Assembly (NCBI GenBank): GCA_030690215.1
Contig: JAUYHD010000022.1
Coordinates: forward strand, 1 to 61,793
Origin: a bacterium
Lineage (GTDB): Bacteria > Patescibacteriota > Minisyncoccia > 1-14-0-10-42-19
Reading direction: 5' to 3'
Length of the DNA: 61,793 nucleotides
The notes under the pieces are model-generated. The model saw only the letters and a program-made list of their open reading frames with translations. It ran no database searches and was not told the DNA's origin. This document shows, in pieces, positions 8,586 to 50,134 of the stretch. The first letter of the stretch is position 1. Each line of letters starts with the position of its first letter. The translations under genes and the position numbers were made by a program.

Positions 8586-8601
8586 TCCCGAAAATGAATA
8601 T

Positions 8602-8673
8602 GCGCCTGTAGCTCAATGGTAGAGCACAGAGCTTATACCTCTGCGGTTCTAGGTTCGACCCCTAGCAGGCGCA
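8602..8673 (+). tRNA. tRNA-Ile(UAU)
   Basis: GCGCCTG-TA-GCTC-AATGGTA-GAGC-A-CAGAG-CTTATAC-CTCTG-CGGTT-CTAGG-TTCGACC-CCTAG-CAGGCGC-A. Anticodon is TAT. No CCA encoded. Confidence 0.85.
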
Positions 8674-8733
8674 TATTCATTTTCGAGGATCCTCGATATT
8701 TCAATAATATTTTTTTGATAAAGTATATCGGGA

Positions 8734-11744: not shown

Positions 11745-11757
11745 GAATACCTATAAG

Positions 11758-11786
11758 GCCGGGCACTGTGCTCCGGCTTTTTTTTA
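11758..11786 (+). terminator. Terminator-like hairpin between prkA and yeaH
   Basis: GCCGG..CCGGC stem followed by TTTTTTTT. Confidence 0.5.
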
Positions 11787-11892
11787 TGATCTTATCTATT
11801 TCAGTTGTATCGTATCTTTGAGGGCAAAGGTAAAAATGCTACTATGGATACGAATAAGAATTGACAAATAAATATAAAAAGAGGTGTGTACT

Positions 11893-13170: not shown

Positions 13171-13179
13171 GAGGGAGCC

Positions 13180-23538: not shown

Positions 23539-26500
23539 ATGGATGAGATTGCGAACCCAGACATATCCGTTACTCCTAAAAAGGAAATATCGCAAGCGGG
23601 CGGCATTTCAGGCGGTGGCGGCAAGAAAGACAATTTCCTTTCTTTTTTTTCTCAATATAAAAAAAATATCGGGATAATCCTTTTTATACTGGTTGTTGCC
23701 GGTCTTTTTTATTTTTCGGGAGTTGTAGAAAAATTCGGCAGTCCCCGGTATGAAGAGCCCTATACGCTAGTGCCTGAAAAAATATCACAAAGCGCCGCTA
23801 TCCTTGTGCGCTTGCCCGAAGGCATTCGTATGGACGCAGACCAAGCTGTAGAAAAAATCACGTTTGAGCCCGTGATTGCGGGTGAATGGATAAGCGGTAA
23901 AAATGATTCTGAGCTTATTTTTCGGCCGAAGACAAAGTTAGAATTTGGTAAATATTATTCCGTTATTCTTGCGGCTGATGAAATTCGTCTTGAAAAAGAT
24001 TTTCTTATTGATGAGGACCCCAGGGTTATTTCTGTGTTTCCGGATGGGGGTTCCGAAGCATCCGAATATTCCAGCATCACCATTGTATTTAATAGGCCTA
24101 TGGTTCCTTTGACTACGCTTGATGTTCTTGCCAAAGAAAATGTTCCGGTTGAAATTTTGCCGCAAACGCCAGGGCGTTTTAAATGGATCACAACAAGGAA
24201 TTTACAATTTATTCCCGAGACGCGCTTGCAACGCTCTTCAAGTTACATCGTACGAATTAAGCAGGGTCTTGTTTCGCTCGACGGTCTTTCGGTTGCCGAA
24301 TTGGAACATAGATTTACGACAAGGCCGCTTCGTTATGAAGACGGACAGCAGGGACGTAGGCGGGGTGTTTCAAAAACGCTGTATAGCCAGCCAATCCGCA
24401 TTTTTTTTAATCAGCCTGTTGATATCGAAAGAACAAAGCAAGAGTTTGAGCTTACCCAAGTTAGTAGAGGCAGAGTTGATTTTACTGCCACATATGGAGT
24501 CCGCTCGATCTATAACGAAGAGACAAGAAAATATGAGCACAAGCTCGATAAATCAATTTTAGAAATTTATAACGCCCAAGACCGCCATGGCCGAAAAGGG
24601 TTTTGGGATTTTAATACCAATTATTCATATGTGCTTAAAAAAGCATATCCTCTTGAGGGGGACATTGATCTGCGCCAATCGATTGCCGGATCAATTGCAA
24701 CCACCGATATTATTGACACTCTTTCTGCGGAATCTCCGCGTACAGAGTTTGCCGAACCCGACCTCTTTGATCCACAGGGAAAATTATGGGTGACATTTTT
24801 TGAAGATATAGACAAGGACGCAAGTTCTATTGATGCCGATTTGCTTAAAGAAATTGGTTATGGAGAAAAGTGCAGAGAGCCGGAAGAGGGAGAGGAGGTT
24901 TCTTACGGAAAGGATTGCGAGAAGGTTACCGATTATAAACGGCTTTCGTTCACTTTTGATGAAAGCAAGTTCAAGCGCGGGCAACAGATATCATTGGAAT
25001 TTAAGAAAATTTTCAACAGGGCGGGACTTCGTTTAAATGCGGAGACGGTTACGCGTTCTGTAACCGCGTATCCCGAACTTGTGGTGTATAAAACGGTGCC
25101 TGCGGAAGGATCGCTTGACGCTGCTCTGACCGGAATGACTTTGTGCACATCAAATCCGCTTGCTGTGCCGGATGAAACAACTTTTTATGAATGGGTAAAA
25201 AGCAATGTTACTATCGGTCTTTGGAATTGGTACCCGCCTTTTCGGGTTCGGAGTGCGAATAGTAATTCTCTCTGTTCGCCGGGCCAATTTCAAAATACAA
25301 TTCGTTACGGTCTTGTCCCGGAATTCCCATATAAGATTGCGCTTTCTGTTGTTGATGATTTTGGCCAAAAAATTTCCAGAGAAGTTAATTTTACCAGTGG
25401 GAAATTATCTTCGTTTTCTCGGAACTTTTTTCATATGCAGGGACGGTATAATGTGACCTCTCCCGAACGAACAAAGCTGACATTTGCGGTAGACAATTTG
25501 GAATATGTGGATATGCATATTTGTAAAATTTCTGCCGAAACCATGCTGTCGTATATTGAAAAAAGACCGAACATAAGCTCTTCGCCCGCAAGCTTGAATT
25601 GCGAACAGGTTTTTGAGAAACGGATTGATTTGCCGAAGCGATATTGGTCCCGTGTATATTTTCAGGCAAATCTTAACGATTATGTTACGAGCCCGCTTGG
25701 GCATTATGTAGTTACGTTTAGTCATCCTGATTATCGCAGGGTCAGTCGTGAATGGAACTCTGCGAGCAGGCAGTATGTTGAACGGGTTGAGGGGCAACTC
25801 TATGAAAAATCCCTACTTACGGTAACGAAACTTGCGGTACAGGAAAAAAAGATTGACCGTCCTGAATTGGATATCCGGACAGAATTGGATAATGCGGTTT
25901 TGTCCCAATTTCCCCAGAATCTTTATTGGGTTACGGAGTTTGGCACTCTAGCATCGGTTATAGGCGCCAAAGTAGATTTATATAGGAAAGGACAGGAACG
26001 GGTTGGTTCATACAGTACGGATAGCGATGGCATCGCGCTTACCGATACATTTGAGGGCTTGGTAGGAGCTGTTGTGCGAAAAGATGGCGATAGCGCTATC
26101 GTGTCGTCCGGTATTGATCGATTGCAGTGGGGTTCTTCGGCTGTAGGCGTTGAGCGGACCTATCTTTATACTGACCGGCCAATTTATCGTCCCGGAGACA
26201 AGGTGTCTATTAAGGGCCTGTATCGTATCGGATATGATGCCCAATATGAAATTTTCCGGGATAATGATGCAACGATTGAGATTCGGGATAGTAATTATGA
26301 TGTTGCTTTGAAGAAGCAGGTTTCCATAAGCGATTACGGCACCTTTATTACTGAATTTACGCTTGATGCGCATGCGCCTCTTGGTACATATTCAATGGCA
26401 GCGCTTGATGGTTATGTGACGTTTGATGTAGAAGAATATGTTCCCGCGGCTTTTAAAGTGGAGACAAATGCCGATAAAGAGGAATATATTGCCGGGGGCA

Positions 26501-29500
26501 TGGCAAAGATTTCCGTGAACGCCGAATATTATTTTGGCGTACCGGTGGAGGGCGGAGAAGTGGAATATTCCGTTACTACCCAGAACTATTATTTTGATCG
26601 CTATCATGATGGATATTTCCGCTTTGGCAATGATTGGTATTACGATTTTGACGGATATTATGGCGATACGTTTATTTCTCGCGGGAAGGTCCCGTTAAAT
26701 AAAGGCGGGAAGGCATCGATTGAACAACAGCTTGATTTTGCGAAACTATTTAAGGAGGAAGACGGTGAGAAGAGTAAAATATTCACGGTGAATATTACGG
26801 TAAAAAATAAGAATGGAGAATCCATTTCATCCCAAAAATCTTTCATTGTTCATCGCGGAACTTTTTACGCGGGTATTAATAGTGATAAGAACTTTTTAGG
26901 AAAAGGGGAGAAAACATCGTTGCGTATTAAAACTGTTGATATAAACGGCAAAGAAATATCGGCAAATAATATTCTTCTCGAGATAAAAAAGATCCGATGG
27001 GAATCGTATAAGCGCCTTGAGGTTGACGGCAATTATTATTATCGTACGGAGCAGAAAAAAGAAACCGTGCAAAAAGATACGCTCCACACCGATCGGAGCG
27101 GTAATGCGTCGTACGAGTTTGCTCTCAACGATCCGGGAGAATATGAGGCCTCTGTAAGCGTAGAGGACGCCGATGGTAACCCCATAAAAGCGACGTATGA
27201 CGTGTATGTGTCAGGGACCGGCAGTGTTACGATACGGCCTACAAATAATGAAACGCTTGATCTCGCAACCGACAAAGGGAAAGTGGATGTGGGCGAAAAG
27301 ATAAAAATTATTATTAAATCTCCGTTTGAACGCGCAAAGGCGCTTATAACTCTTGAGCGGGGCAAGATATTTAAATACGACATTATTTCTCTTACCAGCA
27401 ATTTGGTAGAGTACACATTTCAGGTCGCGAAAGAACACATCCCAAATTTATTTGCGTCCGTGTTGCTTATTTCACCTGATCCCGAAGTTAAATATGGCCA
27501 TATTGAATATCAGGTAAATACGGCAGAGCGGGAGTTGGATATTACCGTGCGTTCACACAAGAATAATTATCTTCCCGGAGAAGAAGTGTGGCTTGAAGTA
27601 GAAACAAGGGATAAAAAGGGCAACCCTGTAGGGTCCGAAGTCTCTCTTGCGGTTGTCGATATGAGTGTTCTTGCGCTTAAGGGCAACCCAAAGAAGGACC
27701 CCGTCCTCTTTTTCTATAACGGCAGTCCTTTGACGGTGAGCACTGCCTCTAACATTAAAAATATACTTCATGAGGCGGATATCCCTACGGGGACTAAAGG
27801 TGGCGGTGGCGGCAGCGAAGATTTGGCGAAGAAAAAACGAGGGGTGTTTAAGGATACCGCATTTTGGGAAGGGGTAGTCCATACCGATGCAAATGGCAAG
27901 ACGAAGGTTTCATTTGTGCTTCCTGACAATTTAACTACGTGGCAGATTGAGTCTGTCGGTATAACAAAAGATACAAAAGTAGGCGTTGGGTATGAGGAGT
28001 TTAAGGCGCAGAAAGACCTTATGGTGGTTCCGTTGCGCCCAAGATTTATTATCCCTGGAGACCAGTTTTTTGTTGGCGCAAAAATATTCAATGAAACGCC
28101 GTCCCGCCAGAAATTAAAGATAGATATTATGAGCGATACGCTTTTGCTCACCGGAAAGCGCGAAATTTCTGTGAGCATTGAGCCGCATGATACTATGACC
28201 GTGTATTTCCCGGCTGAAGCTCCCCAAAATATACAAGACGGCGAACATGTATTTACTCTTTCCGCAAAAAACAACGACTATGAAGATACTGTTGAAAATT
28301 CAATTAAGATTACGCGCAATAATACATACGAATCAGTTGCTACAGCGTCATACACAAACGCGGAAGTAACTCGTGAGTATGTATATCTTCCGCCGAATGT
28401 TCTTGCTGACCGCGGCGGTCTGGAAATTAAAACGAGCGCGACGCTGGCAGTATTTCTTTCCGATGCTTTGAACTACCTTGTTGAGTATCCGTACGGGTGC
28501 AGCGAACAAATCGCAAGCAAGTTAAGCGCATTGGGCATTCTTAAGCGCGGTCTTAATTTAAAAAATATTGCAGATGCCTTTACGTTGAAAGATGTTGAAT
28601 TTGAGGGGCAAGCATATACTCCCGATGATGTTGTAAGAATAGGCCTTGCAAGGCTCTACGAAAACCAAGATGAAGACGGAGGATTTGCTTACTATAAAGG
28701 CATGGAGCCGAATTATTATTTAACGCTTCATATTGCGGGAGCTTTGATGGATCTTAAGGATGCAGGATATGAGGTGGAAGACGAGCGTATTGAAAACGCA
28801 AAAGAGTACATAGTGCGGGAATTAAAACAGAAACAGCAATTGTTGCAGGATAAAGACCTCCTTATTCTTGTAGGATACACGCTTTTCCGGATTGACGGGG
28901 CAGCGTATGATCCGAATGTAAAAAATAGGATTATGTCCGTCGCTCAAGATGAGGCATTTATCCAAGAAAAAATTTCTAATGTAGGCCTTTCATACCTTGC
29001 TATTTTGATTGCAAATGATGACGCGGCAGATTCTTTGGAGGAAGATGTTTTTGATACTCTCGAAAATAGATTAGTGATCGATTCGCGGGGGGCTTCATTG
29101 CGTCCTCAAGGAGACAATTATGTGTATCAATTTTATGAGACTCCCATCAAAGATACGGCGCTAATGATAAAGGCGCTCGCAAAGAGCGAGCGTGAAAATC
29201 CGGTGCTTGATAAAATGTTGCGATGGATTCTTAGAAGCAGGGCAAAAGACGGAGCGTGGGGGTCAACGAATAATACCGTTACTGTTATAGACGCGCTTAC
29301 CGATTTTCTTGTTTGGAAGAAAGAGAATGAGTCTCAATTTGATCTTGCTCTTGTGGTTGACCAGAATGCGCTTGGCGAGTTTTCTTTTGATAAAAATTCA
29401 ATATTAAAAACATTCGAAAAATTTGTTCCAATCCAAGAGATCGGCTTAGGAAAATTGCGTTCATTGGTGTTCACCAAAACGAACAAGAATACCGCGCCTA

Positions 29501-30186
29501 ATAATTATTATTATGATGCGATGCTTAAGTACTATTTGCCTGTTGAAAAAATTTCTTCTCGCGACGAAGGGTTTTCAATCACGCGGGAACTGTATCGGGC
29601 TGATGACGAAAAACGTAGCAAGCCGGTCAGTGAGGCGAAGCAGGGGGATGTATTGAGGGTTCGTCTTGTTATTACCACTCCAACAGTAAGGAATTTTGTT
29701 TCTGTGGAAGATTACATCCCTGCCGGAATGGAAATTGTTAATCTTCGGCTTGCGACCGAGGATCAATCTCTCCGCGAACAAAATCCCGGATATGATGATT
29801 TGTATCGGCCTTATTACTATTATGAAGACGGCGCCGGTGCAGTGCGCGGTTTTAATCTTGCGGGCGCAGGTTCGTTTTTGCGCCAGTTTTTTGGAGGCGT
29901 TTCTCCCATTACTCCAGCAACTGACGGAGAACTTGAAGATGATTTTTATGGGAAGCAGGTTAACGTTGTCGCTCCTTTCTGGCCGGATGCCAATGAGCTT
30001 CACGATGACCGGGCGTTCTTATTTAAAGAACGGTTGCTACCGGGCGTATATGAATATGAATACTTTGTGCGTGCCCTTGTCCCCGGAACGTTCCATCATT
30101 TACCCGCTGTAGTAAATGAGATGTATTTTCCTGAAAATTTTGGCAGAACGCGAGGAGATATTTTTATGGTCAAAGAAGCTCAATAG
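23539..30186 (+). CDS. Alpha-2-macroglobulin family protein with thioester motif, N-terminally membrane-anchored
   Basis: 2215 aa. TM helix near residue 45, repeated MG-like beta-sandwich segments, the thioester site YPYGCSEQ and a C-terminal receptor-binding-like domain. PBP1C is adjacent. Confidence 0.9.
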   Translation: MDEIANPDISVTPKKEISQAGGISGGGGKKDNFLSFFSQYKKNIGIILFILVVAGLFYFSGVVEKFGSPRYEEPYTLVPEKISQSAAILVRLPEGIRMDADQAVEKITFEPVIAGEWISGKNDSELIFRPKTKLEFGKYYSVILAADEIRLEKDFLIDEDPRVISVFPDGGSEASEYSSITIVFNRPMVPLTTLDVLAKENVPVEILPQTPGRFKWITTRNLQFIPETRLQRSSSYIVRIKQGLVSLDGLSVAELEHRFTTRPLRYEDGQQGRRRGVSKTLYSQPIRIFFNQPVDIERTKQEFELTQVSRGRVDFTATYGVRSIYNEETRKYEHKLDKSILEIYNAQDRHGRKGFWDFNTNYSYVLKKAYPLEGDIDLRQSIAGSIATTDIIDTLSAESPRTEFAEPDLFDPQGKLWVTFFEDIDKDASSIDADLLKEIGYGEKCREPEEGEEVSYGKDCEKVTDYKRLSFTFDESKFKRGQQISLEFKKIFNRAGLRLNAETVTRSVTAYPELVVYKTVPAEGSLDAALTGMTLCTSNPLAVPDETTFYEWVKSNVTIGLWNWYPPFRVRSANSNSLCSPGQFQNTIRYGLVPEFPYKIALSVVDDFGQKISREVNFTSGKLSSFSRNFFHMQGRYNVTSPERTKLTFAVDNLEYVDMHICKISAETMLSYIEKRPNISSSPASLNCEQVFEKRIDLPKRYWSRVYFQANLNDYVTSPLGHYVVTFSHPDYRRVSREWNSASRQYVERVEGQLYEKSLLTVTKLAVQEKKIDRPELDIRTELDNAVLSQFPQNLYWVTEFGTLASVIGAKVDLYRKGQERVGSYSTDSDGIALTDTFEGLVGAVVRKDGDSAIVSSGIDRLQWGSSAVGVERTYLYTDRPIYRPGDKVSIKGLYRIGYDAQYEIFRDNDATIEIRDSNYDVALKKQVSISDYGTFITEFTLDAHAPLGTYSMAALDGYVTFDVEEYVPAAFKVETNADKEEYIAGGMAKISVNAEYYFGVPVEGGEVEYSVTTQNYYFDRYHDGYFRFGNDWYYDFDGYYGDTFISRGKVPLNKGGKASIEQQLDFAKLFKEEDGEKSKIFTVNITVKNKNGESISSQKSFIVHRGTFYAGINSDKNFLGKGEKTSLRIKTVDINGKEISANNILLEIKKIRWESYKRLEVDGNYYYRTEQKKETVQKDTLHTDRSGNASYEFALNDPGEYEASVSVEDADGNPIKATYDVYVSGTGSVTIRPTNNETLDLATDKGKVDVGEKIKIIIKSPFERAKALITLERGKIFKYDIISLTSNLVEYTFQVAKEHIPNLFASVLLISPDPEVKYGHIEYQVNTAERELDITVRSHKNNYLPGEEVWLEVETRDKKGNPVGSEVSLAVVDMSVLALKGNPKKDPVLFFYNGSPLTVSTASNIKNILHEADIPTGTKGGGGGSEDLAKKKRGVFKDTAFWEGVVHTDANGKTKVSFVLPDNLTTWQIESVGITKDTKVGVGYEEFKAQKDLMVVPLRPRFIIPGDQFFVGAKIFNETPSRQKLKIDIMSDTLLLTGKREISVSIEPHDTMTVYFPAEAPQNIQDGEHVFTLSAKNNDYEDTVENSIKITRNNTYESVATASYTNAEVTREYVYLPPNVLADRGGLEIKTSATLAVFLSDALNYLVEYPYGCSEQIASKLSALGILKRGLNLKNIADAFTLKDVEFEGQAYTPDDVVRIGLARLYENQDEDGGFAYYKGMEPNYYLTLHIAGALMDLKDAGYEVEDERIENAKEYIVRELKQKQQLLQDKDLLILVGYTLFRIDGAAYDPNVKNRIMSVAQDEAFIQEKISNVGLSYLAILIANDDAADSLEEDVFDTLENRLVIDSRGASLRPQGDNYVYQFYETPIKDTALMIKALAKSERENPVLDKMLRWILRSRAKDGAWGSTNNTVTVIDALTDFLVWKKENESQFDLALVVDQNALGEFSFDKNSILKTFEKFVPIQEIGLGKLRSLVFTKTNKNTAPNNYYYDAMLKYYLPVEKISSRDEGFSITRELYRADDEKRSKPVSEAKQGDVLRVRLVITTPTVRNFVSVEDYIPAGMEIVNLRLATEDQSLREQNPGYDDLYRPYYYYEDGAGAVRGFNLAGAGSFLRQFFGGVSPITPATDGELEDDFYGKQVNVVAPFWPDANELHDDRAFLFKERLLPGVYEYEYFVRALVPGTFHHLPAVVNEMYFPENFGRTRGDIFMVKEAQ

Positions 30187-32303
30187 TTTTTTTCTTTGAC
30201 GATATCAATTTTTACTTTTTGGGTCTTTTGATTCGCTCCGCGTGCGGTTATCAGGTAGATACCCGCTGCGGAGGGGCTCCATGAGATGCGATTTCCTGTG
30301 CCAAGAAAGGTATCGTTGACGCTCCAGTCCACTGTTTCATTTGCGATAAGCGGTATGGTCATTCCATTTTCAAAATACAGAGTATCGTTATGGTGCGGTT
30401 GTGTTACGAGGGCATTATTTTTTAGAATACCGCGAGCAAATGCGTAATCATCTCCCTTGAGCCCATATTCCAATATGCCGTTTTCCGGGTATTCGGCAAT
30501 GGAATTAAAGCTAAATTCGCGCCCGGTATTGTATTCTCCGTTGAGTAAAATGGCCATAACGTCATGCCATATTTTTCCGGCTCCTACGGAGCCGGAAAGC
30601 TGTTGCATCGCGGTATTGTCGCTATTGCCGAGCCACACGCCGACTACAAAATCAGGAGTATATCCGATTGTCCAGCTATCATGATAATCATACGTTGTGC
30701 CTGTCTTTACCGCATAATTCGGTGAGGGCAGGTTGAGGTTGCTTTTGAGGCCGAATTGGCCAACGCCGGTACTGCGATCCGAAAGAATTTTCGTAACCAG
30801 TTCGGTATATGCCGGGTCAAAAATTTGTTTTTCGGTGTTCGGCTGTGTGCTCATGGGAAGTTCCGGGTATTGATTTTCAGTAATGATAAGAGGTTTAAGG
30901 ACTCCATTGTTCGGGAAAATGGAAAAATAATTTGCGAGACTTAATAAATCCATTTCAAGACCGCCAAGCGCGATGCTTAATTGGTATTGTTCAAGCGGTT
31001 GTTGCGGCCTAAATTCCAGATCTTTAGTAAGAAATTGTGCAAAATGTTCGAGCCCAACATATTCGAGTACTCGTACTGCAGGCACGTTCAAGCTATTTGC
31101 TAGGGCGTAATGAAGAGTCACTTCGCCTTGGTATTTCCCATCATAATTTTTAGGATAAAAAGCAAAACCAGTGCCGATTTCGTATTTGTATTCTGTGTCG
31201 TCCACGATCGTATAGGGGCGGGCGCCTTGTTTGAATGCCTCTGCGTAAATAAAGGGTTTCCAGGTAGACCCAATGGGGCGCGGTTTTAATGCCATATTGA
31301 TTTGATGTCCGCTTTGCGTGCTGTAGGGATACGGTGATCCAACGATTGCGAGTATTTCGTTTGCCGTTTTTGTCTTGTCGGTGCGCAATACAACAATGGC
31401 GCCATTGTGTACGCTTTGGAACGCAGGGCTTGCCAAGTTTTTTTGGAGCACCCCCCGTAATAACGCGCTAAGATTACTGTCCACCGTAAGATTACATGCG
31501 GTATCGCATTGATACAGAGAGGAGAGCTCAAATGAATTTTCATTTTTTCTTTTGTAGGCGTAATCATTGTCGGCAGTACTTCGGTTTTCTTTCGTGATGG
31601 CGTTTTCATCCATTGAGATGCCAAATCGTTTCGCATATGCCCTGACCCGTTGGTCGTTCTTTACCGTATAGGGGATGTCGGCGGGGCGGCTAAGTGTTGC
31701 AAGAAGCTGTAACAATTGTGTGTCTGTGAGGGCTTCAGGGTCGCTATTAAAATATACACGCGACGCTTCAACGATTCCCCCTGTCTGTTCCCCAAAATAT
31801 GCAGTATCAGCATACATAGTTAGAATATCGTTTTTTGATTTATGAAGTTCGAGGCTGAATGCGTATATTGACTCAATAATTTTATTGAAAAACGTTCTTT
31901 TGTTTTCGTTTGCGAGAAGATTTTTTACGAGTTGTTGCGTTATAGTACTTGAGCCGCTAAAACGGCCGGTAAATATATATCCAAAAGAGCTGCGAAGAAT
32001 GCTCGCTGGGTTAATACCTACGTGATAGAAAAAGAAACGATCCTCCTTTCTTACCAGAAGATCTTTGAACCGTTCCGGCACGGCACCGGGGCGCATATAA
32101 TGACCCTTTATATTCGGCTGTATCAGGAGTTCCTCTCCTTTTCTGTCTTTGATTGTTATAGACAATTGATTTGCATAAAGGGTTTGAAGGCGCGAACTGA
32201 AGTAAAAGGAAATGCCGTATGCGAGCACAACAAAAAAAGCTATGCGCATAAGCGCGCGGCGGCTTCGGAGTCTTTTTACATATGTTAAAAAGGCACGCTT
32301 CAT
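30180..32303 (-). CDS. pbpC: Penicillin-binding protein 1C (glycosyltransferase + transpeptidase)
   Basis: GT51 motifs RKEDRFFFYHVG and GSSTITQQL. Transpeptidase motifs STWK, SLN and KTGT. C-terminal PBP1C-type extension. Confidence 0.88.
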   Translation of the reverse strand: MKRAFLTYVKRLRSRRALMRIAFFVVLAYGISFYFSSRLQTLYANQLSITIKDRKGEELLIQPNIKGHYMRPGAVPERFKDLLVRKEDRFFFYHVGINPASILRSSFGYIFTGRFSGSSTITQQLVKNLLANENKRTFFNKIIESIYAFSLELHKSKNDILTMYADTAYFGEQTGGIVEASRVYFNSDPEALTDTQLLQLLATLSRPADIPYTVKNDQRVRAYAKRFGISMDENAITKENRSTADNDYAYKRKNENSFELSSLYQCDTACNLTVDSNLSALLRGVLQKNLASPAFQSVHNGAIVVLRTDKTKTANEILAIVGSPYPYSTQSGHQINMALKPRPIGSTWKPFIYAEAFKQGARPYTIVDDTEYKYEIGTGFAFYPKNYDGKYQGEVTLHYALANSLNVPAVRVLEYVGLEHFAQFLTKDLEFRPQQPLEQYQLSIALGGLEMDLLSLANYFSIFPNNGVLKPLIITENQYPELPMSTQPNTEKQIFDPAYTELVTKILSDRSTGVGQFGLKSNLNLPSPNYAVKTGTTYDYHDSWTIGYTPDFVVGVWLGNSDNTAMQQLSGSVGAGKIWHDVMAILLNGEYNTGREFSFNSIAEYPENGILEYGLKGDDYAFARGILKNNALVTQPHHNDTLYFENGMTIPLIANETVDWSVNDTFLGTGNRISWSPSAAGIYLITARGANQKTQKVKIDIVKEKNY

Positions 32304-42609: not shown

Positions 42610-45600
42610 ATGAAGGAAATGGCGGATATGGAGAAAAAAGAAGTACCGGCTCAAAAAACGATATTTCCTCAGATAGAAGAGGAAGTTCTTTCGTATTGGA
42701 CGAAAAACGATACATTCAAAAAAGTTCTTGCGAAAACAGCAAAGGGCAAGAAGTTTGTCTTTTATGAAGGCCCTCCCTATGCGAATGGCCGTCCGGGTAT
42801 TCACCATGTACTTGCGCGCGCCTATAAAGACGTTGTGTTGCGGTTTAAGACGATGCAGAGATATAGCGTGCCAAGAAAAGCTGGCTGGGATACGCATGGG
42901 CTCCCTGTAGAGATGGAGGTTGAGAAAAAATTGAATGTTCATTCTAAAAAAGAAATTGAGACATTGGGGATTGAAAAATTTATTGAAACTGCACGACATA
43001 GCGTTTTTGAGTATAAAAAGGATCATGAAAAGATGACACGACGCATGGGGTATTGGTTGGATTTGGAAAATGCATATGTCACAATGACCAACGAATATAT
43101 AGCGGGTTTGTGGCGGGTGTTTGGAGAGATCGCAAAGAATGGATATGTCTACCGTGATTACAAAGTGCTTCCGTGGTGTCCCCGGTGCGAGACCTCTCTT
43201 TCGTCGCACGAAGTTGCGCAGGGATATAAAAAGGTAAAAGACACCGCGATAACCGTAAAATTTCAAATTTCTAATTCTCAATTTCCAAACACATTTTTTT
43301 TGGCATGGACTACGACGCCGTGGACTTTGCCGGGGAATGTTGCATTGGCAATAAATTCGAAAGTTAGATATGTAAAAATAAAGCCACAAGACACAAATGA
43401 GATTTATATAGTAGCAAAAGATTTATTGCTTAAGGTTTTTCCAGAGTTTAATGGAGCAGATCTCGGGTTTATAAATGGGAAAGATTTAATTGGTTTAAAG
43501 TATGAACCATTGTACGAGACGAAGACTCAAGATAAAGAATCAAAGATATACGAAGTTATTGCGGGGGATTTTGTAACCACCGAAGACGGTACTGGTATTG
43601 TGCATATTGCGCCTGCGTTCGGAGCGGATGATCAGAAAGTGGGAAAGAAAAACAATTTGCCCACGCTCGTTACGGTTGGCGAGGATGGGAAAATGAAAAC
43701 GCCGGGATACGCATGGGACGGCAAAATGTTTTTTGAGGCAAATCCAATTATTATCAAAGATCTCGCCGAAAAAAAACTTCTTTTTAAAGAAAAAGTATAC
43801 GAGCATGATTACCCATATTGCTGGCGATGCAAGTCGGCACTCATGTATTACGCAAAAAATTCGTGGTTTTTAAAAACAACCGCGGTAAAAAGCGCGATGC
43901 AGAAAGAAAACGCAAAAGTAGATTGGCACCCCGATTTTATGGGAACAAATCGGTTTGGCGAATGGCTTCGTGAAAATGTTGATTGGGCGATTTCACGCGA
44001 GCGATATTGGGGCATGCCGCTTCCAATTTGGAAATGCGATGCGTGTGATTTGCATGAAATAGTTTCTTCTCTGGAAGATTTAGACAAGCGGGCAATGCCC
44101 GATACAACAGAGCTCTATGTAATGCGCCATGGCGAAGCGACACACAATGTAAATGGAGTTGTGGGACCTGCGATTCCTAAAACAGACAAGAAGAATGAGT
44201 TAACCGAAAAGGGTAAAGAGCAGGCAAAAAAAACCGCACAAACGCTCAAAGGAAAAATTGATGTTATCGTATGCTCGCCTTTGCGCCGCACAAAGGATAC
44301 GGCGCACATTGTATCTAAGGAATTAGGGGGACTTCCCGTGGAAGTGGAAGAAAGCATCCATGATATTGATGTTGGCGAATACACGGGGAAGAAAATCATA
44401 GAAGTTAATAAAATATTTCCGCGCGAAGAACGCTTTACGCATCCCTTTCCCAACGGTGAAAGCATGCGTGATGTCCGCGTTCGCATGATGAAAAATATTC
44501 GCGATATTCTTTTGCGTAACAAAGGCAAGCGGATACTTGTTATTTCTCATGGCGATCCGTTGTGGGAACTCTACGCCGCTCTTGAAGGAAAGAAAGAAGA
44601 AGATTATTTTGCCTCGTGGTATCCGAAAACGGGAGAAACAAAAAAATTAGATTTGCACAACTGGCCGTATAGCATGGAACGGGGCGAACTTGATTTTCAC
44701 CGGCCGTATATTGACGGTATTTTGCTTCAATGCAAAAAATGCAAAAAAGAGATGCGTCGTATCCCTGATGTCGCTGATGTCTGGTTTGATTCGGGCGCAA
44801 TGCCGTATGCGCAAAATTCAGATTCGTTACAAGTAATTGGAAATTGGAAATTGTCCTCCAAAGGCGGATCCGCCTCGGGCGGAAAAATTGAAAATTTGCG
44901 CAAGCATATAGATTATCCTGCTGACTATATTTGCGAGGGGGTTGACCAGACGAGGGGATGGTTTTATACATTGCTCGCGGTTGCCTCCCTCATGCATCTT
45001 CCGGTGCCGTACGAAAATGTAATAACGGTTGGTTTGGTTCTTGATAAAAAAGGCGAGAAGATGTCAAAATCGCGCGGTAACACTGTTGACCCGTTTTTAC
45101 TTTTTGAGCAGTATGGCGCGGATGCGGTGCGATGGTATTTTTATACGATTAATCAGCCATGGGACGAAAAATTATTTGATGAACGCGACGTGCAATCGGC
45201 CTCCCGTAAGTTTTTGATGATATTTTGGAATGTATTTCGGTATTGGGAAGGCATTACGCATAGCGCAAATTTAAAATTACAAATTCCAAAACCGAAATTA
45301 TTAATTAATATCTGGCTGTTGGCGCGCTTGCAAGAAGTTTCAATCTCTATAACAAAACACCTAGAAGAGTATGAAGTTGTAAAAGCGGCGCGTCTCCTTG
45401 AAGAATTTGTGGGAGAAGACATATCGCGCTGGTATGTGCGCCGTATCCGGGATGGTATGAAAATAGGAAAAGAAAACGAACGAAACGAGACCGATGCCGT
45501 GCTGGGTTTCGTACTGCGCGCAACTTCGCTTCTTGCAGCACCTTTCGCGCCGTTTATAAGCGAAGCGGTAGGAAGGCGTGCGGGCATACACCATAGCGTT

Positions 45601-46158
45601 CACGAAGAAACATGGCCGAAATATAAGGCGGTAGGCGTGAAGGAAAGGGTGTTGTTGGAAGACATGAAAGAAGCGCGGGGCATCGTTTCTTTGGCGTTGC
45701 AAGAGCGCGCAAAAGCCGGCATAAAAGTGCGCCAACCACTCGCTTCGCTTAAGCTCAAAGCTCAAAGCTCAAAGCTCAAAGCTGATAAAGAATTGCAAGA
45801 ATTAATAAAAGGAGAGGTGAACATAAAAGATATCGTATTTGATGCACATATAAAAAATTCAGTTGAGCTTGATACGGCGCTTACTCCGGAATTAAAACGA
45901 GAAGGATCGTTCCGCGAGCTTGTGCGGCGCATACAAGACATGCGCAAAGAAGCAGGTCTTACCCCCAAAGATTCAATTATTCTTCATATCGGAAGCGATG
46001 AAAAAGGAAAAGCATTTATTGATGAATACAAAAAAGATATTCAAACAGCGGTGACCGCGGAATCAATTGTTGAAGAGGCGCTTTCGCATCAGCTTTTTAT
46101 GAAGGCAGTCCTGCAGATTGATGATTACTATTTTGAAATTGGAATTATTAAAAAATAG
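42610..46158 (+). CDS. ileS: Isoleucine--tRNA ligase (type 2) with an inserted histidine-phosphatase domain
   Basis: PYANGRPGIHH (HIGH), CP1 editing motif TTTPWTLPGN, DWAISRERYWG, KMSKSRGN. Residues from about 500 to 690 carry RHGE, SPLRRT and SHG motifs. Confidence 0.95.
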   Translation: MKEMADMEKKEVPAQKTIFPQIEEEVLSYWTKNDTFKKVLAKTAKGKKFVFYEGPPYANGRPGIHHVLARAYKDVVLRFKTMQRYSVPRKAGWDTHGLPVEMEVEKKLNVHSKKEIETLGIEKFIETARHSVFEYKKDHEKMTRRMGYWLDLENAYVTMTNEYIAGLWRVFGEIAKNGYVYRDYKVLPWCPRCETSLSSHEVAQGYKKVKDTAITVKFQISNSQFPNTFFLAWTTTPWTLPGNVALAINSKVRYVKIKPQDTNEIYIVAKDLLLKVFPEFNGADLGFINGKDLIGLKYEPLYETKTQDKESKIYEVIAGDFVTTEDGTGIVHIAPAFGADDQKVGKKNNLPTLVTVGEDGKMKTPGYAWDGKMFFEANPIIIKDLAEKKLLFKEKVYEHDYPYCWRCKSALMYYAKNSWFLKTTAVKSAMQKENAKVDWHPDFMGTNRFGEWLRENVDWAISRERYWGMPLPIWKCDACDLHEIVSSLEDLDKRAMPDTTELYVMRHGEATHNVNGVVGPAIPKTDKKNELTEKGKEQAKKTAQTLKGKIDVIVCSPLRRTKDTAHIVSKELGGLPVEVEESIHDIDVGEYTGKKIIEVNKIFPREERFTHPFPNGESMRDVRVRMMKNIRDILLRNKGKRILVISHGDPLWELYAALEGKKEEDYFASWYPKTGETKKLDLHNWPYSMERGELDFHRPYIDGILLQCKKCKKEMRRIPDVADVWFDSGAMPYAQNSDSLQVIGNWKLSSKGGSASGGKIENLRKHIDYPADYICEGVDQTRGWFYTLLAVASLMHLPVPYENVITVGLVLDKKGEKMSKSRGNTVDPFLLFEQYGADAVRWYFYTINQPWDEKLFDERDVQSASRKFLMIFWNVFRYWEGITHSANLKLQIPKPKLLINIWLLARLQEVSISITKHLEEYEVVKAARLLEEFVGEDISRWYVRRIRDGMKIGKENERNETDAVLGFVLRATSLLAAPFAPFISEAVGRRAGIHHSVHEETWPKYKAVGVKERVLLEDMKEARGIVSLALQERAKAGIKVRQPLASLKLKAQSSKLKADKELQELIKGEVNIKDIVFDAHIKNSVELDTALTPELKREGSFRELVRRIQDMRKEAGLTPKDSIILHIGSDEKGKAFIDEYKKDIQTAVTAESIVEEALSHQLFMKAVLQIDDYYFEIGIIKK

Positions 46159-46160
46159 CC

Positions 46161-46757
46161 ATGTCTTCTCTCATATACCACACTGACGCTATTGTGCTTG
46201 ATTCTTTTGATGTGGGAGAAACCGACCGGATATACGCTGTGTTTTCAAAAGAATTCGGATTATTGCGCGTGTCGGCAAAAAGCATTCGCGCCCAGGCATC
46301 AAAATTAAGGGGGCACACAACGCTTTTTTCTCATAGCCGTATTTCATTTGTGTTGGGGAGGGCGTATATGCGTTTGATTGATGCTGAAGAACTGGAAAGG
46401 CGGAATTTTTCCGGCGAACGGTTTTTTGCAGCCGGGCATATGAGCCGTTTTCTTTTGCGTGTCATCCAGGGAGAAGAACGCGATACCCGTGTTTGGGAAA
46501 TCGTTTCTTCCGCGTTGCGATTTTTGGGCACGCTTGAATCTCAAAAGAGAAACGCGTATGAACGCGACGCGTTACTGTCTTTTGAACTTCTGTTTAGCGC
46601 GCGGCTGCTCTATGTGTTGGGGTATGTTGGAGAAGACAAAAAAGATATAGAAAAATTGCTCCATGCTTCGGAGTGGGATATTTCTTTTACAGATAATGAA
46701 AAAACAGCCCTTCGTTCACTGGTGGACAAAGGGATGCGCGCAAGCCATTTGTGGTGA
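46161..46757 (+). CDS. recO: DNA repair protein RecO (short form)
   Basis: The N-terminal OB-fold pattern (..DAIVLDSFDVGETDRIYAVFSKEFG..) is typical of RecO. 198 aa. Confidence 0.7.
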   Translation: MSSLIYHTDAIVLDSFDVGETDRIYAVFSKEFGLLRVSAKSIRAQASKLRGHTTLFSHSRISFVLGRAYMRLIDAEELERRNFSGERFFAAGHMSRFLLRVIQGEERDTRVWEIVSSALRFLGTLESQKRNAYERDALLSFELLFSARLLYVLGYVGEDKKDIEKLLHASEWDISFTDNEKTALRSLVDKGMRASHLW

Positions 46758-46797: not shown

Positions 46798-48750
46798 ATG
46801 TCTGCAGATAACGAAAGATTTGATAATAATAATTCCAACCACGCATCTGATGATGCGCTTGGGCGTTTGCGAAAACGTATTTATGGAAGGGAAGAAACGT
46901 ATGGGAAAGGACGCATCCAGCGTCCTGAGCTCTCGCCGTTGCGCGACCGGGTATCTCATGATTGGCACACGGTGGAAGAAGAAGAAATGACGCAGAAAAA
47001 AAATCGTCCGTCAAAAAAAATGTCATATCTCGTGCTTTTTTTGATAGGGAGCGGCGTTCTCGCGGTCATTACTGTTAGTGTCGCGGCATGGCTTATACTT
47101 TCGGGCGCGGGCGGCATTTCATTGGAAGGCGCAGAAGTATCTATTGACGCGCCTCGCGAAATTGCGGGTGGTGATTTTGTGACATGGGAAGTGCATGTGC
47201 GCAATAACGTTGGAAGCGATCTGGAAATCGCCGACCTTATTTTTGTGTATCCTGATGGCGCGCGTCCGGCGGTAGAAGAAGACAGAAAGACATTACGAAG
47301 GCGTATTTCCTTGGGGCCGCTGCGCCAAGGCGAAGAAATAACAAAAACATTTGAAGGTTTTTTGTTCGGAGAAAAAGACAGTATCAAGACCGCGCGCGCG
47401 ACATTTGAATATCGGGTGGCAGGAGCAAACGTGATTCTCGCGAATGAAGCTGAGGGAAAAACAAAAATTACTCAATCTCCGCTCGCGGTATTCATACAAG
47501 GCCCCGATATTATTAATTCAGGGGATGAAGCGCAGTTTATGGTAGAAATTTCTTCTCATGCCGATGACGTGCTTGAAAGCGCAGTACTTGTGCTCCAGTA
47601 TCCGGAAGGATTTTCATTTCTTGAAGCAACTCCGGCGCCGTCATTCGGCGACAATAAATGGATACTGGGCACTATTGGGCGCGGCGAATCAATACGCATT
47701 ACATTCCGCGGCATTATTTCGGGGGGTGAACAAGAAAATAAATTATTCCGCGCTGATATCGGGCAGGAAAAAAACAATGTTCTTTCGGTGTTGTATGGCG
47801 TTGACAGCGCGTCCGTGACGATTGCAAAATCATTTCTTGATTTTTCATATCTCGTGAATGACGGCACCCCGAATGTGCTTGCGCCGAATAGTTTTGTTGA
47901 TGTGCAGATTCGCTGGAAAAACAATCTTTCAGTGCCCATAGAGAATGCCGTGTTCCGCATGCACTTTGAAGGAAAGGGGTACACCGAATCATCCGTCATT
48001 GCGCCGAACGGGTCATATCGCGGTACGGACCAGACTATTACGTGGAACGCGTCTTCATACGCGCCGTTTGCGTTCCTTGAACCCGGAGAACAAGGAACGT
48101 TTAATTTTCGTTTTCGCGTGCCGCAGTCATTTCCAATCCACTCCGTATCGGATTCCAATTTTTTTGTTCGATTTGACGGCACATTAGAGGCGCTCAATCG
48201 TCCGCCGGGGTTTGAAAACACCGATATTTCTATACAGAAGCAGTATGAAATAAAAATAAACACTGATTTGCAGGTTGTACGCAAGGCGTTATATTTTGAT
48301 ACCGTGTTGCCGGGTACGGGGCCTTTGCCGCCTGAAGTGGGGCGGGAGACGATTTATACTATTGTTTGGTCTCTTGTGAATTCGTCAAATGATATTAGGA
48401 ATCTCACCGTAAAAGCATCGCTTCCCTCGTATATTATTTGGAAAGGAAGGGTAGATCCGCAGGGTTCGGGAATAACATATGATCCCGTAACGAACCAGAT
48501 AACGTGGTCTATAGATACGCTTCCGCAAGGGACAGGTATTATACGGCCGGTTCGCGAAATATATTTTCAAGTCGGGTACATTCCCGCAACAGGAGACGTG
48601 GGACAGCGTCCGATTATTTTGTCGGAGGTGGTTGCCGAAGGCATTGATGTGTTCACAGAAGCGTTGATCCGCGAAACTGCAGCTGCGCAAAATACAGAAC
48701 TTCGTTTTGACACGGGAACAGGACAGGACGACTGGCGGGTGGTGCCGTAG
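46798..48750 (+). CDS. Membrane-anchored hypothetical protein with repeated beta-sandwich-like segments
   Basis: TATAAT-like box immediately upstream of ATG 46798. One TM helix, then repetitive segments of about 110 aa. No catalytic motif seen. Confidence 0.5.
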   Translation: MSADNERFDNNNSNHASDDALGRLRKRIYGREETYGKGRIQRPELSPLRDRVSHDWHTVEEEEMTQKKNRPSKKMSYLVLFLIGSGVLAVITVSVAAWLILSGAGGISLEGAEVSIDAPREIAGGDFVTWEVHVRNNVGSDLEIADLIFVYPDGARPAVEEDRKTLRRRISLGPLRQGEEITKTFEGFLFGEKDSIKTARATFEYRVAGANVILANEAEGKTKITQSPLAVFIQGPDIINSGDEAQFMVEISSHADDVLESAVLVLQYPEGFSFLEATPAPSFGDNKWILGTIGRGESIRITFRGIISGGEQENKLFRADIGQEKNNVLSVLYGVDSASVTIAKSFLDFSYLVNDGTPNVLAPNSFVDVQIRWKNNLSVPIENAVFRMHFEGKGYTESSVIAPNGSYRGTDQTITWNASSYAPFAFLEPGEQGTFNFRFRVPQSFPIHSVSDSNFFVRFDGTLEALNRPPGFENTDISIQKQYEIKINTDLQVVRKALYFDTVLPGTGPLPPEVGRETIYTIVWSLVNSSNDIRNLTVKASLPSYIIWKGRVDPQGSGITYDPVTNQITWSIDTLPQGTGIIRPVREIYFQVGYIPATGDVGQRPIILSEVVAEGIDVFTEALIRETAAAQNTELRFDTGTGQDDWRVVP

Positions 48751-48799
48751 CGCAAGTCTTGTAGCATGGAGTGCACATCATGTAGTATGTAATGCATAT

Positions 48800-50134
48800 A
48801 TGGAGCAGGAAAAAATGGAACATATAATACGTTTTGCGAAGCGACGGGGATTTATATTCCCCGGTTCTTCGTTGTATGGGGGGCTGGCAGGCACGTGGGA
48901 TTACGGTCCCCTGGGGTTTCGTCTGAAAGAGAATATTCGGCGAGCGTGGCTTTCCTTTTTTGTGGATACGCGCGAACACATGCACGCCATAGATGCGCCC
49001 ATTTTGCTTCATCCGAGAGTGTGGGAAATGTCAGGGCATATAAAAGAATTTACCGATCCGCTCGTTGATTGTAAAAGCTGTAAAGGCAGATTTCGCGCAG
49101 ACCACATACAAGGGAATACATGTCCTACATGCGGTAAGAAAGAGCTGACCGATGCGCGACCCTTTAATATGCTTTTTAAAACATGGGCGGGCCCCCTTGA
49201 AGAAGAATCTTCGCAAGTATATTTGCGTCCGGAACATGCGCAGGGAATTTTTATTAATTTTAAAAATGTCATGGATACAGTGCACCCGAAATTGCCGTTT
49301 GGTATTGCGCAGATTGGGAAAGTATTCAGAAATGAAATTTCTCCGGGGGAATTCTTATTCCGCTCTCGTGAGTTTGAGCTCATGGAATTCGAATATTTTG
49401 TGCGTAAGGAGGATTGGAAGAACGCATTTGAATATTGGTTAGAAGAAATGTTGAAGTGGACGGATGTGCTCGGCCTTCCTCGTAAAAAAATTCATGCCAA
49501 TGATTTGCCTGACGGCGAGCGCGCGCATTATTCGTCTCGTACAGTTGATTTTGAATACGAATATCCGTCCGGAACGAAAGAGCTTATGGCGATTGCGTAT
49601 CGGGGCGATTACGATATGAAGCGGCATATGGAAGGGAGTAGTGTGGATATCCGTTATTTTGACGAAGAAAAAAAGGAGCACGAACTCCCGCATGCCGTAG
49701 AGCCGACATTCGGGCTTGACCGCGCGTTTCTTGCTGTACTTGCCCAATCATATGCCGAAGAACAAATCAACTCTGCTCGGGGTAAACAGGAAAAAGAAAA
49801 AGACACGCGGATTGTATTGAAGATCCCAAAGAAACTCGCGCCATTCCAAGCAGCGGTATTTCCGTTGGTTGCGAATAAAAAAGATATCACCGAAAAAGCT
49901 CGCGCAATATACGAACGATTGCAAGGTGAAATTGCTGTCGCATGGGATGATATCGGCAATATCGGCAAGCGCTATCGCAGGCAAGACGAGATTGGCACGC
50001 CCTGGTGTATTACAATTGATTACGATACGCTTGAGAACGGCACGGTAACCATACGCGACAGAGATACCATGGAACAAGAACGGGTATCTGCCGACGACAT
50101 CGTATTGTATATACGGGGAAAATTAAACACATAA
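48800..50134 (+). CDS. glyQS: Glycine--tRNA ligase (dimeric class II, GlyQS type)
   Basis: RRGFIFPGSSLYGGLAGTWDYGPLG, FRNEISP and a zinc-knuckle-like CKSCKG..CPTCG insertion. C-terminal anticodon-binding domain. Confidence 0.92.
   Translation: MEQEKMEHIIRFAKRRGFIFPGSSLYGGLAGTWDYGPLGFRLKENIRRAWLSFFVDTREHMHAIDAPILLHPRVWEMSGHIKEFTDPLVDCKSCKGRFRADHIQGNTCPTCGKKELTDARPFNMLFKTWAGPLEEESSQVYLRPEHAQGIFINFKNVMDTVHPKLPFGIAQIGKVFRNEISPGEFLFRSREFELMEFEYFVRKEDWKNAFEYWLEEMLKWTDVLGLPRKKIHANDLPDGERAHYSSRTVDFEYEYPSGTKELMAIAYRGDYDMKRHMEGSSVDIRYFDEEKKEHELPHAVEPTFGLDRAFLAVLAQSYAEEQINSARGKQEKEKDTRIVLKIPKKLAPFQAAVFPLVANKKDITEKARAIYERLQGEIAVAWDDIGNIGKRYRRQDEIGTPWCITIDYDTLENGTVTIRDRDTMEQERVSADDIVLYIRGKLNT

Follow-up and report, generated by a model that had tools for sequence, protein, structure and literature searches.

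Why should the isoleucyl-tRNA synthetase (IleRS) of a bacterium contain, in the middle of its catalytic body, a second and seemingly complete enzyme? The question is raised by the ileS gene of contig JAUYHD010000022.1 (assembly GCA_030690215.1), whose forward strand was analysed from position 1 to 61,793; this 61.8-kb stretch is called the window here. It derives from an uncultivated ultra-small bacterium of the Minisyncoccia (Patescibacteriota), and IleRS is an enzyme essential for protein synthesis. A first inspection of the letters, referred to below as the sequence-only reading, had proposed that a histidine phosphatase is embedded in this synthetase. Our findings show that the domain and IleRS constitute a conserved module, which occurs in two forms, gene pair and fusion, with one arrangement per genome, and they suggest that the inserted domain is probably an active phosphomonoesterase functionally coupled to the synthetase.

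The features that delimit the insertion are the following, with conservation counted over the 120 best database homologues of the protein (44-73% identity, 1074-1246 amino acids, aa), which served as the set of orthologues:

42610-46158, forward strand: ileS, type-2 isoleucyl-tRNA synthetase of 1182 aa, an uninterrupted open reading frame (ORF)
44035-44046, forward strand: first zinc knuckle of the CP3 subdomain, Cys476-x2-Cys479 (Cys476 in 120 and Cys479 in 119 of 120 orthologues)
44095-44685, forward strand: histidine phosphatase domain, aa 496-692 (Pfam core aa 502-667, nucleotides 44113-44610)
44731-44742, forward strand: second zinc knuckle of CP3, Cys708-x2-Cys711 (both Cys in 120 of 120 orthologues)

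The ORF at 42610-46158 scored 828.5 bits against the equivalog model TIGR00392 (cutoff 621.4), which identifies it as IleRS; a start at Met7, as chosen by a gene caller, would give a protein of 1176 instead of 1182 aa. Between two pieces of tRNA-synt_1, Pfam annotates a His_Phos_1 domain (PF00300) at aa 502-667, with an E-value of 2.4e-35 and 122.4 bits against a gathering cutoff of 21.7, the match spanning positions 1-167 of the 194 of the profile. This result, far above the curated cutoff, bears out the claim that a complete histidine phosphatase lies inside the catalytic body of IleRS. In the alignment with IleRS2 of Priestia megaterium (8c8w), query residues 21-495 correspond to residues 12-478 of the chain and 693-1079 to 485-851, so that about 197 residues of insert stand in place of about 6; the 190-200 extra residues estimated by the sequence-only reading for positions 44095-44700 (aa 496-697) agree well with the 197 aa delimited by this alignment. 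The insert is placed between both Cys-x2-Cys knuckles of CP3, a subdomain so named in IleRS, where the Thermus thermophilus enzyme has a zinc-binding motif (PMC7191050), and Cys476/479 and Cys708/711 agree with that motif. In known type-2 IleRS only a few to a few dozen residues separate the knuckles, whereas here they are separated by a 197-aa enzyme domain. The composition shows no break (GC 0.447 in the insert and 0.425 in the remaining gene), neither an intein (Hint) nor an endonuclease domain was detected by Pfam in the IleRS protein, and the window contains no second ileS and no other copy of His_Phos.

The AlphaFold2 model of full-length IleRS, obtained with a 120-homologue alignment as input, reached a mean predicted local distance difference test (pLDDT) of 90.9 and a predicted template modelling (TM) score, pTM, of 0.86. 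Over the insert the pLDDT was 88-98, and 94.9 when the insert was excised together with the knuckles, so that the independent folding of the domain, considered earlier from the letters alone, is supported by high-confidence models. Foldseek related the modelled insert to PhoE/YhfR (1H2E, 1EBB) with an E-value of about 1e-13 and target-normalised TM-scores of 0.77-0.79, and further to PspA (4IJ5), CobC (6E4B, 6NRU), Rv2419c and similar phosphatases of about 200 aa; on the same scale, such ~200-aa phosphatases scored 0.70-0.79 and the mutases of 230-250 aa 0.60-0.66. These proteins resemble the insert in fold, in length (about 190-210 aa) and in the set R-H-G, R, E/D, H, but PhoE, the phosphoserine phosphatase PspA and the alpha-ribazole phosphatase CobC are free-standing metabolic enzymes, whereas the insert is embedded and has an additional WYPxTGE strand.

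No equivalog model of NCBIfam claimed the insert, which stayed below the cutoffs of CobC (74.5 against 162.9 bits), PspA (79.8 against 350) and SixA (51.4 against 74.5). Identity as a phosphoglycerate mutase of the dPGM type was considered and rejected, given 36.2 against 81.7 bits for TIGR01258, 73.6 against 225 for NF038349 (dPGM_arch) and a domain of only about 190 aa. The top model was PRK07238 (RNase H/acid phosphatase), with 91.3 bits and a cutoff of 326. In this Rv2228c-type protein a CobC-like phosphatase is likewise joined to a nucleic-acid enzyme; there, however, the fusion is end-to-end and with another partner, whereas in the window the insertion is internal and the score far under the cutoff. 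The insert belongs to branch 1 of the histidine phosphatase superfamily and to none of the families dPGM, CobC, PspA and SixA, and by its predicted fold it groups with the small phosphatases of the PhoE/PspA/CobC type. The term 'PGAM-like' used in the sequence-only reading is therefore too specific, as the dPGM cutoffs were missed and the fold is of the PhoE/PspA/CobC type.

The motifs expected of such an enzyme, all pointed out in the sequence-only reading, were found again: RHG at aa 506-508, CSPLRRTKDTA with R560, and VISHGDPL with H647. The catalytic features and their conservation, both among the orthologues and among 104 synthetase-embedded copies of the domain in the representative proteins described further below, are:

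44125-44133, forward strand: RHG motif with R506, nucleophile H507 and G508 (120, 120 and 118 of 120 orthologues)
44287-44289, forward strand: R560, second Arg of the phosphate pocket, in SPLRRT (120 of 120 orthologues; 104 of 104 embedded copies)
44362-44364, forward strand: D585, putative proton donor, Glu in most relatives (D or E in 119 of 120 orthologues)
44458-44484, forward strand: GES...R motif, E617 to R625 (E617 and R625 each in 119 of 120 orthologues)
44548-44550, forward strand: H647, second catalytic His, in SHG (120 of 120 orthologues; 102 of 104 embedded copies)

RHG was kept in 99 of the 104 embedded copies, the remaining 5 being alignment gaps, and the assignment of residue 585 as the probable proton donor is based on the position of the family motif L-x-E-x3-G only. 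All 120 homologues combine PF00133 with PF00300, that is, they contain the insert, and the invariance of the catalytic Arg and His residues among them answers in the affirmative the question, left by the sequence-only reading, of whether related genomes share an intact domain. Where named, their sources are Candidatus Niyogibacteria, Giovannonibacteria, Tagabacteria, Nealsonbacteria, Pacebacteria, Parcubacteria and Patescibacteria. Mean pairwise identity was 40.9% for the insert, 41.1% for the C-terminal domain of IleRS and 66-67% for the two Rossmann halves. Since the catalytic set is invariant while the insert as a whole averages 40.9% identity, we take this pattern as a sign of selection on catalysis. 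The insert is also basic (net charge +8.9, pI about 9), a property of little diagnostic value because the whole IleRS is basic.

Is the association of phosphatase and synthetase restricted to the fused form? The stand-alone relatives indicate that it is not. In five loci a free-standing His_Phos gene is the neighbour of an insert-less ileS. It stands directly before the start of ileS in L081, with one gene between in L082 (IleRS of 999 aa), 8 nucleotides (nt) ahead in L083 (955 aa) and 10 nt ahead in L087, while in L086 the two genes are convergent. The insert-less enzymes of L082 and L083 have a short CP3 that keeps both zinc knuckles, and the upstream proteins of these loci share with the insert the C-terminal WYPxTGE strand, which is specific to the subfamily. 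The gene order of L083 is His_Phos, ileS, one further gene and recO, so that a recO downstream of ileS is common to L083 and the window, where it adjoins ileS directly:

46161-46757, forward strand: recO, with a RecO_N match, directly downstream of ileS

A metagenome scan with a ten-sequence alignment (A4, a subset of the 44-sequence stand-alone alignment A3) returned 80 loci:

15 of 80 loci: domain embedded in IleRS
55 of 80 loci: domain free-standing, and ileS the next gene downstream in the same orientation, mostly after a gap of 3-54 nt (not an unbiased frequency, since the scan alignment contained ileS-linked proteins)
10 of 80 loci: no detectable ileS, four of them with less than 300 nt of downstream sequence

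Complete IleRS ORFs were available in 47 cases, and they fall into two groups: the 34 insert-less ones (862-1036 aa) are each preceded by the phosphatase gene, whereas none of the 13 with the insert (1132-1234 aa) is, so that insert and upstream gene occur together in 0 of 47. Linkage and mutual exclusivity are clear despite the biased query. Loss of the stop codon in the upstream gene would yield an N-terminal fusion, and no such fusion of His_Phos to IleRS was seen among the best relatives or the metagenome loci; its absence, despite a spacing of 3-54 nt, suggests that the position of the domain on the synthetase matters. When IleRS sequences were placed in neighbour-joining trees after masking of the domain, the fused and two-gene forms were interleaved, with about 12 parsimony changes; as these trees have no support values, they permit no conclusion on evolutionary direction or on the ancestral arrangement. 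A two-domain form of the stand-alone protein was also observed (His_Phos-His_Phos, 430 aa; L089 1183-3509 and L090 105-2431), with both copies catalytically intact; its gene overlaps by 13 nt with that of a downstream ApbA/PanE-like reductase, and fmt precedes it in L089.

The distribution of the domain was followed by an exhaustive search of the insert against 1.84 billion representative proteins, which gave 12,314 relatives at E <= 1e-3 and 823 at E <= 1e-10. About two thirds of the best 150 are IleRS, full length or as fragments from contig ends, and roughly a third are stand-alone proteins 185-215 aa long. Two to four copies may stand in tandem, as in P0137 (1468 aa) at the CP3 site, and the domain also occupies two other places in IleRS, for which the following features of the window enzyme are needed:

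44815-44913, forward strand: Gly/Ser-rich extra loop NSDSLQVIGNWKLSSKGGSASGGKIENLRKH, aa 736-768, after the WFDSG motif
45058-45072, forward strand: KMSKS loop, aa 817-821, from the translation
45313-46140, forward strand: Anticodon_1 (aa 902-1044) and the type-2 C-terminal domain DUF5915 (aa 995-1177), from Pfam

Copies at the second site, past WFDSG (query aa 735-770), were found in P0132, P0149, P0204, P0218 and P0269, and copies at the third, from the KMSKS region to the anticodon-binding domain (query aa 845-900), in P0149, P0158, P0192 and P0204; the IleRS with copies at these alternative sites come from Candidatus Peribacteria and Gracilibacteria. The loop at aa 736-768 of the window enzyme, missing in 112-118 of 120 orthologues and with a pLDDT below 50 at aa 749-755, corresponds to the site-2 position of the Peribacteria-type IleRS and seems to be a second spot that tolerates insertion. 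None of 77 other type-2 IleRS loci fetched as relatives, nearly all from Spirochaetes, has a copy of His_Phos. Two relatives combine the domain with other enzymes: in P0240 (1066 aa) a REP-associated tyrosine transposase-like domain (aa 326-472) is followed by His_Phos and GNAT, and in P0269 (1406 aa) a GNAT stands immediately ahead of the His_Phos copy at the post-WFDSG loop.

The domain is also found in the valyl-tRNA synthetase (ValRS). P0122, P0261 and P0389 were identified as ValRS (NF004349/TIGR00422, Val_tRNA-synt_C; motifs ISPQWF, DWCISRQIWWGHRIPVWY and DTWFSS) and contain two to four copies of it; overall it is present in 72 of 119 ValRS relatives, from Gracilibacteria and Peregrinibacteria where named, mostly at the loop equivalent to CP3 and in seven cases before CP2. 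In a neighbour-joining tree of 227 domain copies, built without support values, all 62 copies from ValRS form one pure clade, and those from IleRS are interspersed with free-standing ones. This topology fits with ValRS having acquired the domain separately and duplicated it afterwards inside its own gene. The catalytic residues are retained in 99-104 of the 104 embedded copies, tandem and alternative-site copies included, with one clear exception in the second copy of P0261. A third synthetase host was suspected in proteins of about 930 aa that have His_Phos at residues ~260-450, but these turned out to be N-terminally truncated fragments of IleRS. In two Peribacteria-type genomes (P0394/P0471 and L002/P0500, their pairing being presumed) the IleRS has His_Phos and the ValRS does not, which hints that one genome carries the domain in either IleRS or ValRS.

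Outside the synthetases, the subfamily has also been joined to TsaC and to ATP sulfurylase. The fusion with ATP sulfurylase was observed in P0206 (568 aa; L085 9001-11536), where His_Phos, PUA_2 and ATP sulfurylase are followed by a sulfotransferase in a cluster rich in glycosyltransferases; the phosphatase there might remove the 3'-phosphate of 3'-phosphoadenosine 5'-phosphate (PAP) or hydrolyse pyrophosphate (PPi). The t6A enzyme TsaC (Sua5/YrdC; P0274-P0382) of Minisyncoccia/Paceibacteria is fused to many small enzymes, most often Ogt (PF01035), and further to TruB, 2H/cyclic phosphodiesterase, methylpurine glycosylase (MPG), GNAT, NUDIX and, in four clusters, His_Phos_1.

From the identity, fold, conservation, distribution, linkage and exclusivity described above, we infer that the insert is probably an active phosphomonoesterase which is functionally coupled to IleRS. 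The domain would cleave a phosphomonoester through a phospho-His507 intermediate, with R506, R560 and H647 forming the phosphate pocket and D/E585 donating the proton. The coupling would consist in action on IleRS itself or on a ligand that IleRS binds or releases, and the synthetase would retain its normal charging and editing parts. With regard to the substrate, our first choice, inferred tentatively and not to be called likely, is a 2'/3'-phosphate on an adenosine-type end (tRNA A76 or 3'-phosphoadenylate), a group that would otherwise block the acceptor or the nucleotide site. Circumstantial observations in its favour are the basic character of the insert, the best NCBIfam likeness, to the RNase H/acid phosphatase fusion PRK07238, and the partners TsaC and ATP sulfurylase, TsaC being alternatively joined to 2H cyclic phosphodiesterases; beside an ATP sulfurylase and a sulfotransferase, a PAP 3'-phosphatase would make sense.

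Several observations weigh against this interpretation. Besides the composition of the scan query, a close stand-alone relative (L084) adjoins genes for a ROK kinase, a HAD hydrolase and GlmS and not ileS, the two-domain protein of L089/L090 is encoded between fmt and panE-like genes, and no His_Phos was found within 8 kb of two insert-less valS loci, read with genetic code 11 or 25. That tandem copies, three to four sites and a free-standing form all work speaks against a requirement for exact placement by the CCA end, and the fusion with TsaC has little weight because TsaC is fused promiscuously (Ogt, TruB, MPG, NUDIX, GNAT). To our knowledge, no branch-1 histidine phosphatase acts on RNA ends, and we know of no process that phosphorylates the ends of tRNA-Ile or tRNA-Val specifically. 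The idea that Patescibacteria do not have a CCA-adding enzyme of the bacterial type was considered and found no support in 10.64898/2026.05.29.728689.

How do other explanations compare? The one that survives best, although we hold it to be unlikely, is that the domain is an ordinary metabolic phosphatase, acting on a small metabolite, such as a sugar phosphate or phosphoserine, that has nothing to do with aminoacylation, and kept in the ileS operon or within ileS for co-expression only, since this essential gene would be strongly and constitutively expressed in a streamlined genome. Nearly all characterised fold relatives are small-molecule phosphatases, the stand-alone relatives L084 and L089 lie in sugar-metabolism or other contexts, TsaC of the same lineage offers a precedent of small housekeeping enzymes joined promiscuously to an essential gene, and the function is compatible with a separate gene, with different sites and with a tandem arrangement. 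Co-expression alone, however, leaves unexplained why the domain was inserted time and again into loops inside the catalytic body, and why simple N-terminal fusions are absent although most upstream genes stop 3-54 nt short of ileS. The strict exclusivity of insert and upstream gene also speaks against it, as does the independent gain of the domain, at the corresponding CP3 loop, by ValRS, the closest paralogue.

Somewhat less probable still is a built-in phosphoprotein phosphatase, which would dephosphorylate the synthetase itself (for instance at a serine of KMSKS) or a bound translation factor and thereby reverse inhibition by a regulatory or toxin kinase. The histidine phosphatase superfamily includes the protein phosphatases SixA, PGAM5 and Sts-1, and the insert has a sub-threshold match to SixA (51.4 against 74.5 bits). 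A tethered enzyme acting on its own host would tolerate several sites, tandem copies or a co-translated partner, its specificity for IleRS and ValRS would be explained, and the IleRS sites (aa 496-692, 735-770 and 845-900) flank KMSKS (aa 817-821) in the sequence. Kinases of the HipA family are in fact able to inactivate class I synthetases, by phosphorylation of a conserved serine in the motif that positions ATP (Ser239 of GltX, Ser197 of TrpS; PMC7029023). Nevertheless, no IleRS or ValRS kinase is known, nor did this analysis identify one, traits driven by conflict are usually patchy whereas this domain is fixed across a deep lineage, and its fold neighbours are metabolite phosphatases and not SixA or PGAM5.

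We regard as improbable a local removal of PPi, in which the domain would hydrolyse the PPi released in amino-acid activation and so drive adenylate formation. Every non-self partner of the subfamily (IleRS, ValRS, TsaC and ATP sulfurylase) forms an adenylate with release of PPi, independence of position and increase in copy number would suit a diffusible product, and branch-2 members of the superfamily, such as AppA of Escherichia coli, can cleave phosphoanhydrides. Against it, we know of no branch-1 histidine phosphatase that is a pyrophosphatase, and there is no reason for only IleRS and ValRS to be chosen among about 20 synthetases that release PPi. Moreover, an inorganic pyrophosphatase is reported for Peribacteria (PMC4736985), a group with one or two copies in its IleRS, and the supposition that these bacteria are missing this enzyme is unsupported for the same reason.

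Insertions that class Ia synthetases have acquired in their CP regions often serve structural purposes, and a non-catalytic role, with the phosphatase fold serving as a spacer or as a surface binding tRNA or phosphate, would suit a basic insert. This purely structural role, one of those suggested in the sequence-only reading, is nonetheless very improbable, as the catalytic set is invariant among orthologues of 44-73% identity and kept in almost every further copy, tandem copies included, while non-catalytic positions average about 41%. An artefact or selfish element (assembly chimera, frameshifted gene pair, intein or mobile insertion) can be practically dismissed in spite of the transposase-like domain in the IleRS P0240, given the uninterrupted ORF without Hint or endonuclease domain or compositional break, identical junctions in more than 120 independent assemblies and a confident model of the whole protein.

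Except for the insert and the form of its class I signature, the host is an ordinary type-2 IleRS:

42796-42807, forward strand: class I signature in the swapped GXHH form, G63-I-H-H66 (aa 63-66), from the translation

The closest solved structures to the whole protein, by sequence and by Foldseek, are IleRS2 8c8w/8c9d and 1ile, and the target-normalised TM-score of the model against solved type-2 IleRS was 0.82-0.92. In alignment A1 (113 sequences), G63 and H65 of the signature are conserved in at least 90% and H66 is invariant, and in the KMSKS loop K817, M818 and K820 are invariant and S819 and S821 conserved in at least 90%. The GXHH variant of IleRS2 has been described and tied to mupirocin hyper-resistance (PMC10485003). 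The CP1 editing domain is present, since the structures 1wk8/1wny align with aa 205-403. The enzymes of T. thermophilus (1ILE) and P. megaterium (IleRS2, 8C8U-8C9D) are of the same family and share with the window IleRS the domain order, the two CP3 Cys-x2-Cys knuckles, KMSKS, the GXHH/HXGH signature region and the type-2 C-terminal domain. The window also contains a tRNA-Ile gene with anticodon TAT (UAU) at 8601-8674 on the forward strand (ARAGORN; Rfam tRNA, 71.8 bits). In bacteria, AUA is mostly read by a CAU tRNA modified with lysidine, and tRNA-Ile of the UAU type is rare; it may bear on tRNA recognition by this IleRS.

An IleRS hosting a second enzyme domain has a precedent in ileS_w_GNAT (NF040702), where the guest is an N-acetyltransferase. 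The window IleRS is different, scoring 323.2 bits against a cutoff of 1999 and showing no GNAT or acetyltransferase match in Pfam, whereas the relatives P0240 and P0269 carry both GNAT and His_Phos. The leucine-specific domain of LeuRS, the ZN modules and the eukaryotic GST, WHEP and UNE domains are likewise lineage-specific additions at loops or termini; the additions catalogued for class I synthetases are, however, binding, structural or editing modules, whereas the insert is a phosphatase. Among the domain superfamilies that AARS Online catalogues for synthetases there is no phosphatase, and a full-text literature search, Patescibacteria and the Candidate Phyla Radiation included, found no description of a fusion of IleRS or another aminoacyl-tRNA synthetase (aaRS) with a histidine phosphatase. 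The sequence-only reading, which knew of no embedded phosphatase, was in this sense justified, although the arrangement is lineage-wide and already lies unremarked in the protein databases, where the homologues are labelled only as 'isoleucine--tRNA ligase' or 'class I tRNA ligase family protein'. The novelty is the combination of an ordinary type-2 IleRS with an ordinary small branch-1 phosphatase, as enzyme domains inside IleRS have a precedent.

Other features of the window were noted in passing. On the forward strand, positions 9645-17057 contain two genes of the PrkA family (9645-11744 and 14883-17057), an unassigned 428-aa ORF (11884-13170) and a SpoVR-like gene (13180-14886), a cluster that resembles the prkA-yeaH-spoVR/ycgB module and is not expected in a lineage with small genomes. 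A bacterial alpha-2-macroglobulin of 2215 aa (MG2, bait region, A2M, TED, MG10) is encoded at 23539-30186 on the forward strand, next to a class A penicillin-binding protein at 30180-32303 on the opposite strand, a pairing known in other bacteria. Three genes downstream of ileS, at 48707-50134 on the forward strand, lies a class II synthetase of 475 aa (tRNA-synt_2b and HGTP_anticodon).

What does the finding mean for these bacteria? Aminoacyl-tRNA synthetases are among the best-studied enzymes, and their added domains are known mostly from eukaryotes and serve binding or editing. Placed within the catalytic body of bacterial IleRS and, separately, of ValRS, a second and apparently active hydrolase would be an addition that we have not found described. 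The tight gene pair, its exclusivity with the fused form and the convergent insertion at CP3 in two paralogues agree in pointing to a functional link. The case is also an example of domain insertion in which one domain is found as an upstream gene, in three loops of IleRS and in two of ValRS, in one to four copies. As no phosphorylated substrate is known in the charging pathway of isoleucine or valine, identification of the substrate could reveal something new, whether repair of tRNA ends, regulation of synthetases by phosphorylation or a new activity of histidine phosphatases. It is a real possibility, if not a probable one, that much of the Patescibacteria has a hitherto unrecognised phosphate-dependent control or repair of tRNA-Ile and tRNA-Val charging, carried out by a dedicated histidine phosphatase encoded beside or within IleRS or ValRS. 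It would proceed by healing of phosphorylated 2'/3' ends of tRNA or by dephosphorylation of KMSKS, and the domain would have been repeatedly relocated between an upstream gene and different internal loops of the synthetase; the lineage concerned makes up a large share of bacterial diversity.

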